Source of the DNA: an uncultured archaeon
GTDB taxonomy: Archaea > Asgardarchaeota > Thorarchaeia > Thorarchaeales > Thorarchaeaceae
DNA: 12,275 nt
Assembly: GCA_964590575.1 (NCBI GenBank)
Contig: CAZPWM010000093.1
Span: 1-12,275, forward strand
Reading direction: 5' to 3'
A program made the position numbers and the translations under genes. Positions 2,139 to 12,275 of this stretch are shown in pieces. The notes beneath the pieces were generated by a model that ran no database searches, was not told where the DNA came from, and saw only the letters and a program-made list of their open reading frames with translations. Every line of letters begins with the position of its first letter. Position 1 is the first letter of the stretch.

Positions 2139-3527
2139 TCAACTATATTTTCTCCAGAATCTATTACCTTTCTTTTGTTTGCCATAGCCCGCAAAATCAT
2201 CCATCTTGATAATCAATCGATTAAGAAAGGGAGTATGCTGTACTAGCCATAAAATCATCCGATGAAAGATACCATCCTTCTTGTTATATGGACATGAACG
2301 GATGCAGTTCGAACATTCTGAACCATTCTCAATCCAGAACCCATAACAGCTCTCAACATCTACGTACCATTTTTTTATCCCAGGATTGTTCGAGATACTG
2401 GTTCCTTCCCAAGTTTGCTCCGTTCCAAGTGGTATCGATTGAGAAGGACATGCAGTTGCACATTTTTCGCAAATCTCACAAAATCGAATAACCGATTTGC
2501 AAAAAGCCTCGTCGGGATAGTCCCTCAGAAGCGGCATATCTGTAAGTACTTTAGCAATTCGCACCCTAGGGCCAAATTGCTTTGTTATCAATAATCCATG
2601 TCGTCCATACTGACCCAGCCCTGCATCAATTGCTTGTGGAACGCTAAGTGCTACATTATTTCCAGAAGTCATCGCATTGTAACCAAGTCGTTGAATAAAT
2701 GCTGAAAGTTCAACTTCAACAAAGGCCATGGTTGAATATCCAAGAGCCGTGGTTGCCGAACATGTGAAGCTAGGTGACGTAGCTATGGCATCATAGTCCA
2801 TCTCTATTGCCATGACAATAACATATCTCATTGTTTCATAAACGTCATATAGTTCTCCTCGTCGATTCTTGGTGTATAGCCAATCCCTGTTGAGAGGAGC
2901 AATACCAACAAGATTCGCTCCAAAGAATTTTGCAGCCCGCTTCACCATCTGAGATAATTCTTTAGGATCTGTTACTTTCCTTACACCAGACTCGCTAGCA
3001 TTAGGATCAAGACCAATTCCTGGCCGTTGTATTGAATGGCGTGAATCGTAAAGCTTCCAGGCTGCGACCGTAAGCTCGTGCTCGAACCGACCATATCCGG
3101 GAATATCTTTCGAAATCATCCGTTCTGCACCGGAGAATTCAGTCTGGTGGTAGTATTGGAACGTAGGGTCGAATTGGACTCTAGCAAAGATAGTATCAGC
3201 CTCTGACATTTGTTTGAAACCATCTGCCACTGTATAGGGGCAATAATCTGATTCTTCAGAGGCTCTCGATTGTGCTACTTTGATTTCACTGCTTCCGCCG
3301 GTCCGTTCACTTCTAATTGCATCACGTGGACAGACACGAACGCATGCAAGACACACAGTACACGTTTCATGATCGATTATAGGATAACTCCAACCCTCTT
3401 GAAAACTCAAAGGCGATTCGTCACCATGTATTCTCTGACAAGCATCAAGACACTCGAGATTGCAAGATGATGGTTCACAGCTACCGGTTTTCACAAACAT
3501 GGGGGAGTCTCCAAGTTGATAGCGCAT
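2139..3527 (-). CDS. rdhA: Reductive dehalogenase-family corrinoid/Fe-S protein with extra N-terminal ABCE1/RLI-like 2x[4Fe-4S] domain
   Basis: RdhA core motifs AKFFGANLVGIA, AIDAGLGQYGRHGLLITKQFGPRVRIAKVLTDMPL, FCEICEKCATACP (CxxCxxCxxxCP), C-x10-CxxCxxxCP and C-terminal MDDFAGYG...FW. N-terminal 8-Cys motif; no twin-Arg signal. Alternative start ATG 3500 has GGAG upstream. Confidence 0.85.
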   Translation of the reverse strand: MRYQLGDSPMFVKTGSCEPSSCNLECLDACQRIHGDESPLSFQEGWSYPIIDHETCTVCLACVRVCPRDAIRSERTGGSSEIKVAQSRASEESDYCPYTVADGFKQMSEADTIFARVQFDPTFQYYHQTEFSGAERMISKDIPGYGRFEHELTVAAWKLYDSRHSIQRPGIGLDPNASESGVRKVTDPKELSQMVKRAAKFFGANLVGIAPLNRDWLYTKNRRGELYDVYETMRYVIVMAIEMDYDAIATSPSFTCSATTALGYSTMAFVEVELSAFIQRLGYNAMTSGNNVALSVPQAIDAGLGQYGRHGLLITKQFGPRVRIAKVLTDMPLLRDYPDEAFCKSVIRFCEICEKCATACPSQSIPLGTEQTWEGTSISNNPGIKKWYVDVESCYGFWIENGSECSNCIRSCPYNKKDGIFHRMILWLVQHTPFLNRLIIKMDDFAGYGKQKKGNRFWRKYS

Positions 3528-3608: not shown

Positions 3609-5210
3609 TTGAGTCGAGTGAGAAAGCACATTGTCATATTCGAGCCATCTGGTCTACGTATTCTAACGGATGAACAGACCACGTTTCTTGATGCTGTAAG
3701 AATGGTCGGACTTCATCTACAATCGGATTGTGGAGGCAGAGGCTCATGTGGAAAATGTGAAATTATTTTGCAACCAGCCCCAGAACCGACGCCTGAAGAT
3801 GAGAGAAACATATCTTTGGAAGATCGATTACGGGGTGTCCGTTTGGCATGCCAACACAATGTGAGGACGGACACGCGGGCAGTAATATTCAAGCAACGAG
3901 GGGAGGTACAGATACTTACCGCAGGAGTTTCTCGACTGGAGGAATGGTCTCCTGATTCAGGACATGAGGGTCAGTTTGGGATTGCTATCGACCTAGGAAC
4001 CACTACCATTGTGGCGTATCTCCTTGCACTCTCTTCAGGTGTTCAGATATGCCAAAAAGCGTCGCTCAATCCACAGGCAATCTTTGGCGAAGATGTAATA
4101 TCACGAATATCTTATGCAACTAAGGAGGAAACTGGGCTTTCTGAACTCACAAAGATGGTCACATCTGAGATTGATTCGATTGTTGGTTCCCTTGTAGAGT
4201 GTTCCGGGATTCAGATGGATAGCATCTCAAAAATGTCAATTGTTGGAAATACAGCAATGCACCACCTTTTGTTGGGTGCTGATGTCAAGCCATTGGGACT
4301 TGCACCATATGAACCATCGATTCGAGATGCCGTAGTAACCACAGGTTTAGAATTAGGTTTATTACCCACTCGAAATATCGAGGTCTATCTTCCACCGAAC
4401 ATTGCAGGTTTTGTGGGAGGAGATACTGTTGGCTTCATTCTCTCTCAAAGACTGGATTTGTCGGATGAGGTTGTTCTAGGGATTGATATTGGAACCAACG
4501 GTGAAATTGTACTCTCGAATCGAGGTGCGTTGTCATGTTGTTCCGCGGCAGCAGGACCTGCCTTTGAGGGAGCAACCATACGATATGGGATGCGAGGACA
4601 ATCGGGAGCTATTGAGTATGTCACCATTGAAGACCCTGAAGAACCACCAGAGATAACAGTCATAGGTGATGGAGTGCCTCGAGGTATTTGTGGTTCAGCA
4701 ATTGTAGATACTGTGGCAGAGATGAAACGGTCTGGTATTGTTGATAATACAGGCAGGATGCAATCAACTTCACAAAGAGTGTATCATGATGATGAGTTTG
4801 GACTTAGTTACTTGCTTGTAGAGGAGTCTGCCTCTTCACGTAGGATTTCATTCAACCAGAAAGATGTACGACAGGTTCAGTTGGCAAAAGCGGCTATTAA
4901 AGCAGGGATTACAATACTACTGCAGGAAGCTGATGTCACTGTCAGTGACCTTGATTCTGTGATGCTTGCAGGCGCATTTGGCAACTATATTCGGCCTGAG
5001 AGTGCGCTTCAGATCGGCCTACTACCTCCTGTTGAAAGAAACAGAATCATTCAGGTGGGTAATGCAGCAGGAGAGGGAGCTAAAATTCTTCTTCTTTCTT
5101 CGGAAGCGAGAGAGATAGCAAACGATTTCGTATCCAAGACTAAATATGTTGAACTAGCATCTCATGATGATTTCCAGTCAATATTCATTGAAGCAACCTC
5201 ACTTCCTTAG
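3609..5210 (+). CDS. ASKHA-type ATP-dependent reductive activator of corrinoid proteins (RACE; RACo/AcsV-like, DUF4445) with N-terminal [2Fe-2S] domain
   Basis: N-terminal CGGRGSCGKC...RLAC ([2Fe-2S]); ASKHA motifs IDLGTTT, NPQAIFGEDVISRI, GNTAMHHL, AGFVGGD, DIGTNGE, SAAAGPAFEG, GICGS, AGAFGNYI, GNAAGEGA. TTG start. Confidence 0.92.
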   Translation: MSRVRKHIVIFEPSGLRILTDEQTTFLDAVRMVGLHLQSDCGGRGSCGKCEIILQPAPEPTPEDERNISLEDRLRGVRLACQHNVRTDTRAVIFKQRGEVQILTAGVSRLEEWSPDSGHEGQFGIAIDLGTTTIVAYLLALSSGVQICQKASLNPQAIFGEDVISRISYATKEETGLSELTKMVTSEIDSIVGSLVECSGIQMDSISKMSIVGNTAMHHLLLGADVKPLGLAPYEPSIRDAVVTTGLELGLLPTRNIEVYLPPNIAGFVGGDTVGFILSQRLDLSDEVVLGIDIGTNGEIVLSNRGALSCCSAAAGPAFEGATIRYGMRGQSGAIEYVTIEDPEEPPEITVIGDGVPRGICGSAIVDTVAEMKRSGIVDNTGRMQSTSQRVYHDDEFGLSYLLVEESASSRRISFNQKDVRQVQLAKAAIKAGITILLQEADVTVSDLDSVMLAGAFGNYIRPESALQIGLLPPVERNRIIQVGNAAGEGAKILLLSSEAREIANDFVSKTKYVELASHDDFQSIFIEATSLP

Positions 5211-5262: not shown

Positions 5263-6141
5263 TTGATGCTCTTGCAGAAGATTTCAAAACCTCTAAAGAT
5301 TGGGCACACAAGAACATGTGACTGTCCACCAAAACATATCAACTGCTTAACAGCAAAGGAATGGATGCAATCACAGATTGCAGTTTGGGAGTTCTATTAC
5401 GAAAAGAGGGACATTCGGGACAAGAATTTGCATCCTGCGGTTTTTCCGATTTCACTTCCGACAAAATGTATCGAATTGTTTACACATCGAGGTGAGCTTG
5501 TTATTGACCCATTTGTGGGGAGTGGCACAACACTGGTTGCTGCACAGGATCTAGGTCGCAATGCCGTTGGTTTTGATCTCAAGGAAGAATACGTGGACTA
5601 TGCCAACGAAAGAGTGTCAAGCAATGAAGATGTTACAAGTCAACTAGCAATTAATGACGAAGCTAAGAATATCCCTCATTACTTTGATGATGATATAGTT
5701 AGTCTCTGTGTCACCTCGCCCCCATACGCCAATCTTCTAAACAGAAAACGCAAGAATAAAAGCAAACGGGGAAATCTCAGGGAAGATGAGCATTTTCTGA
5801 AGGTTCAGCAGTATTCTGAAGATTCAAGGGACCTTGGTACAATGGACGTGGAAGAGTATGCTGATGCTCTAAGCGATATCTTTGGGGGGATTCTACCAAT
5901 ACTGAAATCTAGAGGACATTGTGTAATCAACATCACAGACTACTGGTGGAAGGGAAAACGGATTCCAATTCACGTCCACGTTATTGATGCACTTCAAAAA
6001 GTGGGGTATGAACTTCGGAATACTATCATCTGGGATCGACGAAACATTGTGAACAAAGTTGGTATCTTTGGTTGGCCTTCGAACTATATCACACTTACAA
6101 CAACATTTGAGTATCTACTGCATTTCTGGAAACCCGAGTGA
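5263..6141 (+). CDS. DNA amino-methyltransferase (probably N4-cytosine), orphan
   Basis: HPAVFP (5431-5448), SAM-binding DPFVGSGTT (5506-5532), catalytic TSPPY (5713-5727), then IIW...FEYLLHFWK. Start is TTG 5263 or ATG 5266. Confidence 0.88.
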   Translation: MMLLQKISKPLKIGHTRTCDCPPKHINCLTAKEWMQSQIAVWEFYYEKRDIRDKNLHPAVFPISLPTKCIELFTHRGELVIDPFVGSGTTLVAAQDLGRNAVGFDLKEEYVDYANERVSSNEDVTSQLAINDEAKNIPHYFDDDIVSLCVTSPPYANLLNRKRKNKSKRGNLREDEHFLKVQQYSEDSRDLGTMDVEEYADALSDIFGGILPILKSRGHCVINITDYWWKGKRIPIHVHVIDALQKVGYELRNTIIWDRRNIVNKVGIFGWPSNYITLTTTFEYLLHFWKPE

Positions 6142-6153
6142 ATGATTGTCATC

Positions 6154-7233
6154 CTAGATTCCAAGCTCGGAGAACACAAGATCCTTGACCTTCTCGACGT
6201 TTCCGCGTACAATAGCCCACGTTTCATCATCATCTTCGTATGGGGGATCTTGCTTTGGTGGTTCATAATCGTACCCAGAGAGAACAGACATGACAACACC
6301 AATACCCCACTTGAAAGAGTCATTCGTATAACCACCGCCAGCAAGGACTCCGAGGCGGCCATCGCTGAATTTGTGGGCAGCATCGTGAAAGAATGTAGTA
6401 ATGTATCGAATCATGTCAGTGGTGAGATTCAGGTGAGCAAGACGGTCTCTATAATGGGCATCGAACCCGGGCAGGAAAATAATGAAGTCTGGTCTAAAAA
6501 ACTCCACAAGCGGAGGTACAATCTCGTCAAAGGCAAATTTGTAAACTCCATCACAGGAATCCATAGGAAAGTGCATATTGATGTTGTATCCACGACCAAG
6601 ACCTTCCCCAATATCGTCAATGAATCCATCATGGGGGAACATCCATTCGGGGTCTTCATGGAATGAAATCTGCATGACCATGGGATCCTCATAGAAATAC
6701 GCCTGAGTACCATTTCCATGATGGACATCAAAATCAGCAACTAGGATTCTTTGATAACCTAGATTCTTCAGTTCATAGACTGCAGCAGCAACGTCATTAA
6801 AGATACAGAATCCTCCGCCCCATTCGAATCTTGCGTGGTGAAATCCACCGGTTGGGGATAGAAAATGGTGCACTTTTCCAGATGCAACAGCATTTACCCC
6901 GGTCACTGTAGCGCCAGAGGTTATGCTAGCATTTTCGAAAATACCCGGAAATCCGGGAGTATCGATGGCAATATCACCCTCGCCTGTTTCAGATATTCTT
7001 CGAACAGCATCCAGGTATTTCTGAGCGTGGATAAGTTTCAGTAATTCATCAGATAGTGGTTTGGGAGTCAGTACTTCTACATTAGGTTGATCTAGAAAAT
7101 CGTTTTCTGCAAGAAAATCACGGACCATCTGAAATCGCCCGACTTTGATTGGATGCTTGGCACCAAAATCGAAAGTTTCCAGACTAGGATTCCAGAGAAA
7201 ACCAACCCGGCAAATACTGCTGCTCCTCATCAT
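6154..7233 (-). CDS. Zn-dependent histone deacetylase family protein (AcuC/HDAC-like lysine or polyamine deacetylase)
   Basis: KHPIKVGR, DTPGFPG, GGFHHA, GFCIFND, DFDVHHGNGTQ, SFHE, GxGxGYNIN, GFDAH..D.L, GGGY (catalytic Tyr). Full catalytic set is present; substrate cannot be read from sequence. Confidence 0.93.
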   Translation of the reverse strand: MMRSSSICRVGFLWNPSLETFDFGAKHPIKVGRFQMVRDFLAENDFLDQPNVEVLTPKPLSDELLKLIHAQKYLDAVRRISETGEGDIAIDTPGFPGIFENASITSGATVTGVNAVASGKVHHFLSPTGGFHHARFEWGGGFCIFNDVAAAVYELKNLGYQRILVADFDVHHGNGTQAYFYEDPMVMQISFHEDPEWMFPHDGFIDDIGEGLGRGYNINMHFPMDSCDGVYKFAFDEIVPPLVEFFRPDFIIFLPGFDAHYRDRLAHLNLTTDMIRYITTFFHDAAHKFSDGRLGVLAGGGYTNDSFKWGIGVVMSVLSGYDYEPPKQDPPYEDDDETWAIVRGNVEKVKDLVFSELGI

Positions 7234-8799: not shown

Positions 8800-11659
8800 A
8801 TGGATATCTCAAAACGAATTGTAGTCACTTTCGTCACTGTTGCGCTAATACCGATTATTGTGATTTCATCTCTGTCGATAATTGCAATAAATAACGTATC
8901 AAACGCGAACGCTGCTGATGCCGCTGAGGAGCTTAAAGCAGAAGAGCTAGCAAACCTGATGAGACTCTCTAATGACACGGGTCTCTTCATCGAAGAGAGA
9001 TGGAAGAACTATGTTGATGGAGTCTATATGATGGAAGCGTATTGTGAGGACCTTATCAATGGAAGAATAAACGCGACCGCGCGATATAGCTATTATTGGA
9101 ACCAGACTGAAGAACCAAATTGGGGAGACCTCACATTTGAAACCGCCCCAGATATTGTTGATGCTTACTTCTCTGATTTCATCACATTTCAAACAGATTG
9201 TTACTATATGCCACGATTTGCATGGAATAATAATGACCCACATGACCTCTCTCCAAGTACTCAATATGCTCTTGATGTTACATCCAATATGGTGAATGTT
9301 TTCAGGGCACTTCACGAAATGAATGAAGACTTTAGATGGCTATACATGGGATTTGACTTGGGAATTTCCGACCAACACTTGTTCCGTAACTACCCATTCG
9401 ATGATCTATTCTATTTCCAAGAGGATGATGAAGGAAATCCAGTCCTACCATCGGAGGACTATGACCCCAATGCAGAGGATTGGTACACAAATGTAGTAGC
9501 ACAAGATATTGGTGACGATAGTGTGGTTTTCACTGAACCATATATTGACCCTTCAGTTGGACTTGTAATCTCTATGGGAAGACCTGTGAGATATGACGAT
9601 GGAACATTATTTGGTGTAGTATCTGCAGATGTATCAATGTCCACGATAAATGACAAAGTTCTGAATCTTGAAGTATTGGAAAATGGATACTCATTTTTAC
9701 TCGATTCAAGTGCTACAGTCATAGCGCATCCTCAACAAGACCCATTAGAAGATCCTCTGCCAATTGAGTTACTTGAGTTCAATTCAACAACAAGCACAGA
9801 GGCAGTTGCATTTAGTGGCCTCCTGAGTTCCACAGTGTTAATGGAAGAATCAGGATTGGAAGAATTCCAGAAGGCGGGTCAAACCTGGTATATGGCTTTC
9901 GTCAACGTTACTAACACAGAATATGTGCTAGCAATCGTGGTCCCCAATTCAGATGTCATTGCACCCGCCTTAGCTATGCTCTCCCTTGTTGGGACTCAGA
10001 CCCTCATACTCACCATTGCTCTTGGAGCAGTATTAGCAGTTGTAGCTGGTGTGATTACGGTTGTTTCTTATCGAAGAGCACATTCAGTAATAGAACCAAT
10101 AACCGAAATGACGCGTCTTGTGAATAAGATGGCAAGACAGGACTTCACTAGGGGAATTACAGCAGCAGGTGCCATGTATGAGGAAGTAGGAACAACTGTT
10201 GATGCACTGCTTAGTTTCCAAGAAGCGGCAAGGTTTGGTAATCAAGCGTTCATTCGAGGAGATCTTAATCGAGCATTGGCTAATTACCAGAATCTGTTGG
10301 AAATAAGCCAGAGACTTGAGATTGATGTTGGAGAACAGATCATGCTCCTCAATATTGGCAATGTGTTCAGACAGCGAGGCGATACTGGAAACGCTATGGA
10401 TTACTATGAGCAGTCGATGATAATAGCTAAACGTATTCTAGATAAGACAAAAGAAGAGGGAACGGATGAGAAAGATGCACTCGTAAGAATCGCGTCTCTT
10501 TACCATAATATGGCATTAGTTGAGATGGACCGAGGCAAGGCTGACAAAGCAATGAACCTCTTGGAAGATGCAGAAGCAATCGACAGGACGATGCAGAACC
10601 AATATGGTCTTGCTAAACGCTTCGATGCGATGGGACTCGTAATGATGCGTGATGGTCGTTACAGTCAAGCTCTGTCAAGATTTGATGAAGCCAAGGATAT
10701 CGCAAAGTCAATTGATTACCTGAGAAGTCTAGCTTACATTCACTACCATGAAGGGGAGCTACATCAAGTTCAAGGGAATTGGAAGAAAGCTGAAGACAAC
10801 TATAATGAAGCGATATCATATGGTCAGGAAACTGATGAACTCTGGTTAGTTGTGTATGCTATGAAGAGACTAGCAGATGTTCTCGATCAACGAAACAAAC
10901 CCAGTCATGATGTACGGAGGAAAGCGGAGAAACTCAGGCGCTCTATCATGTTTAAAAAGAGTGTTACCTTTGTAATCGATTACTCAGGCAGTATGCAAGC
11001 GCAGAATAGAATCAGAGCGGCTGTAAATGGCGCTTTAGAGATCTTGCATAGTCAGGTAAACCCACAAGACGCTGTTTCAGTAATCGTCTTTAACTCCTCG
11101 TACCGAGAACTGCTCCCACTCACGATTAAAGGAGAACGAGATGACGATGAGAATAAGATTGTGAAGACACTGAAATCGTTGAAATATCCAAACTATGCCA
11201 CTGCATTCTATGATGCTCTGGGAAGAGCACTGGAAGAACTTGAAAGAATCGAATCCAGTGATAGCATTGACAGATGGACAGGATAATAGTTCTGAAACCT
11301 ACTCTCTTGACGTTCTTGAAGGAATTATTACTGAAGCGGATCGATTGAAGAGAAAGAAACCTCTTACAATCGAGGGCTTTATCCGAGACCACCATCTAGA
11401 TGTCAATCTACTCATCATAGGTGTGGGACAGGAATTAAGTCAGAAAGCGGATACTGACAAACGGATAAAATCAGCACGAACTGGTCAGCTGATAACTACA
11501 GAAGAACTCTTGGAATCAATCTGTGATAGTATTCCAGAAGGTCAGTATATTTCGGTAGTAGATAGCTCTAATGTCAGACTAGATATCGAGAAAGCATTCG
11601 AGAAAGTGGGAGTCTTAATGGCACAACTAGAAGTCGGAGGGACTACTACGGATTATTGA
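8800..11659 (+). CDS. Membrane receptor TM-dCache-TM-HAMP-TPR-vWA, interrupted by a frameshift at ~11251-11260 (first-frame ORF stops at 11286; vWA continues in the +1 frame to 11659)
   Basis: TM1 ~8818-8889; dCache motifs YDPNAEDWY, FTEPYID, GVVSADV, GYSFLLD..VIAHP; TM2 10003-10071; HAMP (IEPITEMTRLVNKMARQDF...EEVG); ~40-aa TPR repeats 10231-10920; vWA MIDAS DYSGS (10978-10992) and ATAFYDAL in the first frame, VIALTDGQDN and LLIIGVG in the shifted frame. Confidence 0.8.
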
Positions 11660-11660
11660 A

Positions 11661-11667
11661 GGAGGTG
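11661..11667 (+). promoter_or_regulatory. Shine-Dalgarno site
   Basis: GGAGGTG just after the TGA at 11657-11659 and 8 nt before ATG 11676. Confidence 0.75.
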
Positions 11668-11675
11668 TAATGAAA

Positions 11676-12275
11676 ATGGTACAGTCAACAACACAGACCA
11701 AGAAGAAAGGTAAATTCCGAACTACTGTAATCCTCACATTCCTCGTGATCTCGCTTGTGTCTCTCGCAGCCACAGGAGTGGTTTCATTGACCTTTGTGGA
11801 CTTGATAGGTAACTCAACGAGGGATCAGAGTTCTATAGCTCTGGAGACCCAGATTGAAACAAATATGGATCAAACCGCTCAGAAGACCGCTCTCGTCATA
11901 AATCAGAAATTAGCTAGTGCAGAAGGGATGATTGCTGCGGCGGCAGAGGAACTCGAAGCTCTATTCGCGACTGGTTCGACTTACGCAAATCGAGAAGTGT
12001 ACTATGACCTTTTGTTCGAAAATGACTCGGTTTCCCCAGCACCAGCTGATAACCACTACGACCCGAATTATGGGCTCAATGTGTCCTGGGATTATAGCAG
12101 CTGGTATATTGCTAACACTGATTCTACAACCTACAATTCTAGCTATGCGGATATTCCTGCAAACGCGGACAAGCTTGGGCGTGTGTCTAATATTGATTAT
12201 ATATTCAAAGCAATACGCAATCAGATAGAGTTCAGATGGCTCTATATTGCCTTTGCTGACGACGGATTGTTCATC
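11676..12275 (+). CDS. Second dCache-type membrane protein, paralog of the 8800 receptor (partial, runs off right edge)
   Basis: Open frame missed by the ORF track: MVQSTTQTKKKGKFRTTVILTFLVISLVSLAATGVVSLTFVDLIG...RVSNIDYIFKAIRNQIEFRWLYIAFADDGLFI. It has a basic N-tail, one TM helix, a long helix, and FRWLYIAF matching FRWLYMGF of the upstream protein. Alternative in-frame ATG at 11670. Confidence 0.85.
   Translation, partial: MVQSTTQTKKKGKFRTTVILTFLVISLVSLAATGVVSLTFVDLIGNSTRDQSSIALETQIETNMDQTAQKTALVINQKLASAEGMIAAAAEELEALFATGSTYANREVYYDLLFENDSVSPAPADNHYDPNYGLNVSWDYSSWYIANTDSTTYNSSYADIPANADKLGRVSNIDYIFKAIRNQIEFRWLYIAFADDGLFI

Follow-up and report, generated by a model that had tools for sequence, protein, structure and literature searches.

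A Thorarchaeia gene disrupted by a 14-base deletion encodes a candidate subunit of a two-gene transmembrane receptor with a TPR and MIDAS-vWA output

The 12,275-nucleotide stretch analyzed here (the window) is the entire contig C93 (CAZPWM010000093.1) of an uncultured archaeon of the Thorarchaeia, whose genome bin has 194 contigs and is 91% complete. Positions 8800 to 11659 hold a gene for a transmembrane (TM) receptor, gene A, which is located between an upstream gene, bprop, and a downstream gene, B (Table 1). The original prediction had treated these positions as one gene for a Cache-HAMP receptor with a tetratricopeptide repeat (TPR) and von Willebrand factor A (vWA) output. It is right in substance and wrong in one detail, because the window gene is frameshifted: there are two open reading frames (ORFs) instead, ORF1 at 8800-11286 (828 amino acids [aa]) and a second ORF at 11195-11659 (154 aa, +1 frame).

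Table 1. Features of the receptor locus, in window positions.
Feature	Position	Strand	Details and basis
Upstream gene bprop, 479 aa	7300..8739	+	Cytoplasmic beta-propeller, Zn ribbon (aa ~291-314) and two winged-helix-like units; Pfam propeller and Zn_Ribbon_1
Receptor gene A, ORF1, 828 aa	8800..11286	+	Start codon to premature stop (11284-11286) made by the frameshift
TM1 of A (aa ~7-25; K5 and R6 precede)	8818..8874	+	Hydropathy 2.69
Extracytoplasmic dCache_1 sensor of A (aa ~41-386)	8920..9957	+	Pfam; phmmer alignments to PctA/PctB/PctC in PDB; fold matches; column counts
TM2 of A (aa ~403-421; R425 and R426 after)	10006..10062	+	Hydropathy 2.68
Diverged HAMP-like linker of A (aa ~426-478)	10075..10233	+	Invariant columns; hhalign; PF00672 in relatives; two low-pLDDT model helices
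TPR array of A (aa ~479-717), 13 LGN/KLC-like helices	10234..10950	+	Pfam TPR_12; model; Foldseek
vWA N-terminal part, ORF1 frame; DxSxS 10978-10992, MIDAS Thr 11200-11202	10957..11260	+	Pfam VWA_2 and VWA; alignment
14-base deletion site; EHRWV codons lost, +1 shift	11260..11261	+	Alignment to relatives; public contigs
vWA C-terminal part, +1 frame (in ORF 11195-11659); TDG 11270-11278, stop 11657-11659	11261..11659	+	95% identity to P0003 aa 820-957
Gene B, first 202 aa, runs off the contig	11670..12275	+	ORF; continuation on contig C85

Pfam models locate dCache_1 (PF02743) at aa 195-379 of ORF1 (53.3 bits against a cut-off of 45), several TPR models across aa ~480-700 (TPR_12, E 2.4e-16), and two vWA models, VWA_2 (PF13519) at aa 722-816 (45.3 bits, cut-off 27) and VWA (PF00092; 27.9 bits, cut-off 23.8). 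Hydropathy gives two TM segments, with Lys and Arg residues N-terminal of TM1 and after TM2, and these basic residues place the Cache domain outside the cell and everything past residue ~422 inside. An intact relative, P0003 (957 aa), is 96% identical to ORF1 over 824 aa. In its AlphaFold2 monomer model (mean predicted local distance difference test [pLDDT] of 73), a long helix at the N-terminus is followed by a double-Cache fold and TM2, then by two helices modeled at low confidence (434-444 and 457-486), 13 TPR helices (pLDDT ~90) and a Rossmann-like vWA domain. In Foldseek searches, the whole model matches full-length models of chemoreceptors (methyl-accepting chemotaxis proteins [MCPs]), its dCache part matches the ligand-binding domains of mmHK1S-Z3, Mlp24 and PctA/B/C, and its TPR part matches LGN/Pins, KLC1 and consensus-TPR structures. 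The proposed domain order (TM, dCache_1, TM, a diverged HAMP, TPR, vWA) is therefore borne out by Pfam, hydropathy and the model, as are, by Pfam and the model, the several TPRs between linker and vWA. The predicted lack of a kinase, MCP, GGDEF, cyclase or PP2C output also holds: Pfam finds none in the window ORFs of A or in the A protein of a related locus (L007), and no HisKA/HATPase_c, MCPsignal, GGDEF, EAL, Guanylate_cyc or PP2C/SpoIIE domain following HAMP is among the 25 commonest Pfam families of 55 family members (defined below). Among the PADLOC defense-system models, A matched a generic TPR model only (E 7.4e-11), and neither B, bprop nor the nearby SpeA-like gene described below matched any.

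The metal ion-dependent adhesion site (MIDAS) of the vWA domain had been described as complete (DYSGS, T, TDG). Its residues are indeed present, with DYSGS at aa 727-731 and Thr at aa 801, but TDG is out of frame in the window, its Asp (11273-11275) falling in the +1 frame, which is that of ORF 11195-11659. Relatives of A are single proteins of ~941-963 aa that read ...IESSEHRWVIALTDG... in one frame; aligned to them, the window has IESS, a single base, and then IALTDGQDN in the +1 frame. One base hence stands in place of the EHRWV codons, equivalent to 14 bases missing after 11260, between the MIDAS Thr and TDG. Among the lost codons are those for E821, H822, R823 and W824, four residues that all 29 Thorarchaeia proteins compared have in common. 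With DxSxS and Thr in ORF1 and TDG in the other frame, the MIDAS of the window is not on one polypeptide. The sequence on either side of the deletion is sound (ORF1 96% and the second ORF 95% identical to P0003).

Public (Logan) contigs of four runs (X1 to X4) were compared with window positions 10300-12275. The X1 contig (depth 6.59) has 14 extra letters behind 11260 and is otherwise identical to the window over 10300-12206, and the X4 contig, from another study (depth 5.14), carries the identical 14 letters at the same place. One X2 contig (231 nt, depth 2.2) is deleted like the window, while X3 has no cover over 11026-11355 and is silent on the deletion. The intact form in X1 and X4, in which all MIDAS motifs share one frame, implies that an intact gene is present in the same or a nearly identical population, and the deletion is either a minor allele or a low-coverage artifact. 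It is quite unlikely, in our judgment, that the window locus is a dying pseudogene in which the deletion is real and fixed and nothing is functional. The deletion shared by the window and the X2 contig, the loss of four family-invariant residues and an internal TAA in another genome would agree with such decay, but X1 and X4 are intact at higher depth, no further defect was seen in either ORF, and the X2 contig may share reads with the assembly and hence not be independent. Programmed +1 frameshifting is ruled out, because an intact allele exists and the deleted form lacks the four invariant residues.

The internal TAA is found in a single-contig Thorarchaeia genome (CP070658.1, G368:C1:196731-199577, equal to L037 8001-10850), where one in-frame TAA splits the receptor gene into pieces of 200 aa and 695 aa; the gene has thus been disrupted a second time, independently.

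The intact form of the gene belongs to a large family. A word-indexed protein search returned 159 proteins at E ≤ 1e-5, and the 120 matches listed are all at least 57% identical; the organisms named among these 120 are Candidatus Thor-, Sif-, Hermod-, Hod-, Loki- or Promethearchaeota. When a single genome per species was scanned, 49 Thorarchaeia-type loci and one weak, vWA-only bacterial match emerged. A phmmer search against 1.84 billion cluster representatives gave 126 matches at E ≤ 1e-30, and many representatives of 850-950 aa align as one stretch at 22-40% identity; two named clusters are from Lokiarchaeota and Hodarchaeota. Matches at E ≤ 1e-40 come from 116 of 400 Asgard species genomes (a count that takes in fragments, paralogs and Cache-less forms), with 68 of the 85 genomes of the window's own family and eight other Asgard families represented. 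A further clade, that of P0184, sits on metagenome contigs of 21-31% GC. Its matches in the 400 Asgard genomes are only 30-32% identical, which implies that the clade is absent from the sampled Asgard genomes. The P0184-seeded scan also gave related A-B pairs on contigs of 61-66% GC.

From the 150 cluster representatives listed, 54 proteins (846-985 aa) were combined with P0003 into a 55-member set, in which Pfam detects dCache_1 in 55, TPR_12 in 54 and VWA in 54 members. Although the members share only 21-40% identity, D727, S729, T801, T829, D830 and G831 (P0003 numbering) are invariant in 55/55, and S731 is kept in 54/55. This invariance argues that metal-dependent binding is the function under selection. 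The family is also no product of misassembly: the HAMP-TPR-vWA junction recurs in 47 Thorarchaeia and 19 other-Asgard loci that were independently assembled, and it is these assemblies that speak against a chimera, since the public-contig stretch compared above begins 3' of the HAMP/TPR junction. In open full text (with subscription journals and bioRxiv supplements outside the search), no paper on this family or on an Asgard/Cache/HAMP/vWA/TPR combination was found, and a paper on structural modeling of Asgard proteins makes no mention of Cache, von Willebrand, integrin or receptor. The proteins form a bona fide and widespread family of Cache-HAMP receptors with a TPR/MIDAS-vWA output, and apparently an uncharacterized one.

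What is new in this analysis is that the receptor is one half of a conserved two-gene module. Gene B starts 11 nt past the stop codon of A, behind the letters aggagg, and continues on another contig of the same genome (C85), whose first residues overlap the last residues of the window. Its product comprises a TM segment, dCache_1, a second TM segment and a canonical HAMP domain, and ends a few acidic residues later; the B ortholog at L007 (489 aa) has dCache_1 and HAMP at 424-486, and in the B proteins scanned there is no Pfam domain past HAMP. B is paralogous to A, with 39% identity across aa 177-425. It directly adjoins A in 44 of 44 judged Thorarchaeia loci, in all 19 loci from other Asgard families, in which A has only 25-39% identity, and in 13 of 21 judged metagenome loci (21-66% GC), and the A-B gaps are short in the other loci examined as well. 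On the high-GC contigs, HAMP is Pfam-positive in both proteins. In the Asgard loci, the receptor is thus accompanied throughout by this output-less Cache-HAMP paralog, which the original prediction had missed.

Reduced forms of the pair point to the parts that matter. In all five genomes of one family (f22), a Cache-less A' (~580 aa; TM-TM-HAMP-TPR-vWA) is followed by a 150-aa B' made of TM-TM-HAMP only, so that TM segments and HAMP are the sole parts common to all pairs. HAMP domains work as two-chain four-helix bundles. Given the shared TM and HAMP parts and the bundle nature of HAMP, the simplest reading is an A:B hetero-oligomer with a single output arm.

Several forms of the pair deserve separate description. 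One Cache-less example (L075 5854-8045; others are in G200, G210, G215 and G234) has an A' of 578 aa with a short loop and a canonical HAMP, and a 609-aa propeller/Zn-ribbon gene comes next after its B'. The B proteins of L122, L124, L129 and L144 (61-66% GC) and of L062 end in a CPxC...CPxC Zn ribbon, which shows that a Zn ribbon recurs around the module; those of L059 and L060 (583-665 aa) bear HEAT-like repeats. One single-contig Asgard genome (G065:C1) has two A-B pairs, at 1736902-1739370 and 2277696-2280434, and the second of them (L062) is more like an unassigned metagenome clade than the first pair is.

The paralogy of A and B would also fit another arrangement, in which A is a conventional homodimeric receptor and B an independent, output-less sensor (a decoy, a modulator or a receptor acting through HAMP contacts) that is adjacent through tandem duplication only. 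An output-less Cache_heme-HAMP receptor has been published that binds a kinase, and its available description does not mention pairing with a second receptor (bioRxiv 10.64898/2026.05.25.727664). The C-terminal additions on some B proteins (the Zn ribbons of L062, L122, L124, L129 and L144 and the HEAT-like repeats of L059 and L060) likewise hint at contacts specific to B. We nevertheless find this arrangement doubtful, because an uncoupled duplicate would not remain adjacent at 25-40% identity across Asgard families and contigs of 21-66% GC, and because a 150-aa B' with neither sensor nor output makes little sense unless A' is its partner.

The HAMP domain predicted behind TM2 of A is right at the level of the family but not demonstrable from the window sequence alone: PF00672 has no match to window aa 399-500 even at E ≤ 10, and the L007 and P0003 orthologs have none at E ≤ 0.001. 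At the linker position of the 55 family members, PF00672 matches in 23, the best at 1.1e-13. Within Thorarchaeia the linker is strongly conserved, with invariant positions that include P433, E436, M437, T438 and the run G464-L471. By hhalign, the Thorarchaeia linker matches the region that HAMP occupies in a distant clade (51 columns, E 2.3e-7, probability 93.5%), and this region in turn matches the Pfam-positive HAMP of B (E 1e-5). We therefore read the linker of A as a putative diverged HAMP domain.

The data directly show which domains A contains, its hydropathy-based topology, the conserved MIDAS, the pairing of the two genes, and the frameshift with its polymorphism. Taken together, we propose with about even confidence that A, disrupted here by the 14-base deletion, is one subunit of a non-enzymatic transmembrane receptor built from the products of two genes that are conserved together.

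The surroundings of the pair offer candidate partners. In Thorarchaeia, the gene order is an HDAC-family gene (minus strand), the propeller gene, A, B and a gene for a 616-aa pyridoxal phosphate (PLP) decarboxylase, which resembles biosynthetic arginine decarboxylase (SpeA-like) over its full length (NF003763, E 8.8e-103, 345 bits with the cut-off at 369). Of the 47 Thorarchaeia loci, 37 have a SpeA-like gene within 5 kb of A and all 47 a bprop-like gene; of the 19 other Asgard loci, 11 have a SpeA-like gene and 11 a bprop-like gene within this distance. The order and strand of both genes vary between Asgard families. The bprop protein has no TM segment by hydropathy. Its AlphaFold2 model (pLDDT 81.8, predicted template modeling score 0.73) begins with a propeller (aa 1-263), continues with a Zn ribbon and ends in a pair of winged-helix-like units; Foldseek matches are to generic propellers (Brat NHL, BBS2, WD40), and the C-terminal winged-helix-like part has no Pfam match at E ≤ 1.

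MoxR-type AAA+ ATPases act together with vWA proteins in the NorD/NorQ, CoxE and Bat-type systems. The original prediction had named MoxR AAA+ proteins, small GTPases and roadblock proteins as neighbors to look for. None of these turned up nearby: among the 12 L007 proteins scanned (~1350-19314 of the locus, receptor included) there is no GTPase, roadblock or AAA+ family match, and a search of five genomes for AAA_3 (PF07726) found none on contig C93 and, in G065, G138, G320 and G368, the nearest copy at least ~150 kb from A. The vWA domain could still be an adaptor for a MoxR-class ATPase encoded elsewhere, with a role in metal-cofactor insertion or the remodeling of membrane complexes. AAA_3 genes do occur elsewhere in all five genomes, NCBIfam sees in A a weak likeness to the vWA subunit of a cobaltochelatase (E 1.9e-10, well short of the cut-off), and prokaryotic cytoplasmic MIDAS vWA proteins are described, in the available text of one study, as often paired with MoxR (PMC9976466). 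Given the distances in the four single-contig genomes, the window contig without AAA_3 and the L007 proteins without an AAA+ match, we consider an adaptor role very unlikely.

The HDAC-family deacetylase gene of the window (6154-7233, minus strand; Pfam Hist_deacetyl, 2.6e-73) is directly upstream of the propeller gene. It is kept in most Thorarchaeia loci long enough to show it and was not seen in 20 other-Asgard loci. Its reading as an acetylpolyamine amidohydrolase is unsupported, as NCBIfam names no family for it. Farther to the left, the window carries a reductive-dehalogenase-family gene at 2139-3527 (minus strand; NCBIfam RDH, 231.6 bits with a cut-off of 160, two 4Fe-4S motifs) and, divergent from it, a RACo-type corrinoid reductive activator gene at 3609-5210 (plus strand; Pfam RACo_C_ter, 1.6e-83), a pair retained at many Thorarchaeia loci. 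A soluble-looking PAS-PAS histidine kinase (PAS_9, 4.9e-27; HATPase_c, 1.5e-15) is encoded at the left end of the contig (535-2034, minus strand). An N6/N4 DNA methyltransferase gene at 5263-6141 (plus strand; Pfam N6_N4_Mtase, 5.4e-33) has no evident restriction enzyme beside it and occurs at some relatives' loci only. The 174-aa ORF at 6142-6666 (plus strand) overlaps the deacetylase gene on the opposite strand over nearly its whole length, draws no Pfam match at E ≤ 10 and is probably not a gene. A scan for sigma-70 promoters (14 against 10.3 ± 3.3 in shuffled sequence) and terminators (4 against 3.2 ± 2.1) gave no excess, the scan being inapplicable to archaea.

The sensor domain offers hints to what the pair may detect. 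The best sequence matches of the Cache domain of A in PDB are PctB, PctA and PctC (phmmer, E 1.6e-11 to 3.3e-10). The pocket residues Y121, R126, W128, Y129, Y144 and D173 of PctA correspond to Y221, E226, W228, Y229, Y248 and D277 of A, so that five of the six residues of the dCache_1AA amino-acid motif are kept and A falls outside the motif through a Glu at the Arg position. All five are retained in 29 of 29 Thorarchaeia A proteins, of which 25 have E and 4 have Q where PctA has R126. The B protein of the same genome reads YDPRGEDWY, also with Glu at that position. In contrast, Arg is kept in 38 of the 55 diverse members, mostly as YDPRCRxWY. According to the available account of PctA, R126 binds the carboxylate of the ligand (PMC10589655). 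A change from Arg to Glu at this position suggests that the Thorarchaeia receptors bind an amine-like ligand rather than a free amino acid, and the arginine decarboxylase in the cluster makes an amine such as agmatine or a polyamine attractive as the ligand. We tentatively hypothesize from these residues that the Thorarchaeia pair senses an amine (agmatine or a polyamine) and its Arg-bearing relatives an amino acid, which we regard as possible rather than probable.

The invariance of this pocket also bears on whether the protein signals at all. The TPR-vWA arm might instead be a static membrane anchor or scaffold that tethers, for instance, the propeller protein or SpeA, with the Cache domain serving a structural or adhesive purpose outside. 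TPR and vWA domains are generic scaffolds, and the Cache-less versions mean that the core module can do without the outside sensor. Yet HAMP, a signal-conversion module, is retained in every version, the Cache-less one included, and Y221, W228, Y229, Y248 and D277 without exception in 29 Thorarchaeia proteins argue for ligand binding. A purely static role thus seems unlikely.

If A and B do form one receptor, its working can be sketched in steps, all of which we infer. The TM2 and HAMP helices of the two proteins would hold them together as a hetero-oligomer, with an output on one protomer only. A small ligand, in Thorarchaeia probably amine-like, would bind the outside dCache domains, and the HAMP bundle would relay the change to the cytoplasmic TPR-vWA arm. 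There, the MIDAS metal site and the TPR groove may capture or release a cytoplasmic protein, for which the beta-propeller/Zn-ribbon/winged-helix neighbor and the SpeA-like arginine decarboxylase would be the best Asgard candidates. Ligand binding would in this way be passed to the recruitment of cytoplasmic proteins, as originally suggested. A more specific version, which we offer as speculation and hold to be rather improbable, is an obligate asymmetric Cache-HAMP heterodimer with an output like an intracellular integrin head. It would capture or release the propeller/Zn-ribbon/winged-helix protein (possibly a membrane-held transcription factor) and/or the arginine decarboxylase, and polyamine synthesis would thereby respond to amines or amino acids sensed outside the cell, with neither phosphorylation nor second messengers involved.

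Beyond its last vWA helix, the C-terminal end of A (945-957 of P0003) keeps a hydrophobic-Glu-Gly/Ser-Phe/Leu-like motif in all clades. Examples of it are LEVGG..DY in Thorarchaeia, VDVEGF/EIEGF in other Asgard archaea and NVESL on low-GC contigs. The motif could be a tail that docks onto the TPR groove.

Several observations weigh against a two-gene receptor with these partners. Eight of the 21 judged metagenome loci have no adjacent B, and some of the "A" ORFs at such loci may differ in architecture. The direct hhalign comparison of the A linker with the HAMP of B is not significant (E 0.21, 17 columns), so that the HAMP of A follows by transitivity only. SpeA-like and bprop genes are each missing from 8 of 19 other Asgard loci, and for each gene just 1 of the 36 metagenome loci is positive. 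Their scarcity in the metagenome clades marks them as Asgard-specific associates, and neither is a universal partner. Because synteny in Thorarchaeia is high overall (the HDAC, M24, ADH and aminotransferase genes are kept too), the neighborhood within this group is weak evidence. Finally, the frameshift in the window and the TAA interruption in a second, single-contig Thorarchaeia genome (L037/G368) indicate that the receptor gene can be lost.

Among the extracellular sensors of prokaryotes, transmembrane Cache-HAMP receptors are the most common type. A family whose sole output is a TPR array and a MIDAS vWA domain would add a new class of Cache-HAMP outputs, and a constant pairing with an output-less sister chain would be an asymmetry built into the receptor. 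The family is frequent in Asgard archaea, where signaling is almost unstudied and recruitment of a eukaryote-like kind is a particularly interesting mode of signaling. A linked SpeA-like gene and the Arg-to-Glu change in the pocket provide a concrete, testable hypothesis of amine or polyamine sensing. If the asymmetric-heterodimer reading were true, it would describe a recruitment-based signaling route native to Asgard archaea and present also in still unnamed lineages.

Compared with known systems, the front end of A is of a known type (Cache-HAMP), and the TPR/MIDAS-vWA output would be the new part. The classical dCache_1-HAMP receptors (the PctA/PctB/PctC chemoreceptors, sensor kinases, and GGDEF/EAL and PP2C proteins) have the same front of TM, dCache_1, TM and HAMP. 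They differ from A in their MCP hairpin, kinase, cyclase or phosphatase output, where A has TPR and MIDAS-vWA and an output-less paralog alongside. The original prediction of a non-enzymatic receptor class agrees with the lack of an enzymatic or MCP output and with the MIDAS invariant across the 55 members, but being non-enzymatic is in itself no new principle: MCPs, like A, have no enzymatic domain of their own, and MCP signaling domains also act by recruiting proteins. The available text of a 2016 census of Cache domains names as outputs MCP, histidine kinases, cyclic-di-GMP enzymes, phosphatases, cyclases, Ser/Thr kinases, transcription factors and the alpha2delta ion-channel context, and no TPR-vWA output is among them (PMC4822843).

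For B, the closest functional precedent is, by analogy, the output-less Cache_heme-HAMP (CHH) receptor, reported in 2026 to bind an operon-encoded Ser/Thr kinase via its HAMP domain (bioRxiv 10.64898/2026.05.25.727664). As far as the available report goes, the logic is the same: a periplasmic Cache, a TM segment and a HAMP "uncoupled from intrinsic enzymatic output," encoded beside a presumed partner. Unlike CHH, B has a dCache_1 without a heme motif, and its neighbor is a paralogous TPR-vWA receptor instead of a kinase.

To our knowledge, the alpha2delta calcium-channel subunits and CACHD1 are the only well-known proteins that join a MIDAS vWA and dCache_1. The Cache domain of A has weak matches of this kind in PDB (phmmer; 8s7c, E 2.6e-5; alpha2delta, E ~0.007-0.1). 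In alpha2delta and CACHD1, as far as the available texts describe them, vWA and Cache are both extracellular, vWA comes first, and there is no HAMP or TPR (PMC4822843, PMC9901441). The vWA domain of A lies after TM2, HAMP and TPR, and neither A nor the 55 family members have a Pfam match to VWA_N or VGCC_alpha2. Shared ancestry of the two Cache-vWA combinations is rejected, given the different order and topology and a vWA domain in A without an alpha2delta match.

Among archaea, a cytoplasmic vWA protein that signals through regulated protein-protein binding, as A may do, is ArnB of Sulfolobus acidocaldarius, which binds the FHA-domain protein ArnA (PMC6509490). By the same partial account, ArnB differs from A in being soluble, free of Cache, HAMP and TPR, and controlled by phosphorylation; no FHA, kinase or phosphatase family was matched among the L007 neighbors scanned.

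Proteins of the MoxR-associated and Bat types combine TM segments, vWA and sometimes TPR. By these descriptions, A is set apart in having no linked MoxR gene and in carrying its vWA domain at the C-terminus, after a sensor and HAMP. A complete DxSxS...T...D MIDAS, as in the family of A, is the mark of integrin I and I-like domains, and among solved structures the vWA sequence of A comes closest to A domains of the adhesion type, with TRAP first (E 0.004) and ITIH4 and CMG2 next. The propeller gene that adjoins A may offer a further parallel, as the propellers of integrin alpha chains pair with beta I-like domains. Unlike that of integrins, the vWA domain of A is cytoplasmic, and the likeness would be one of fold and motif only.

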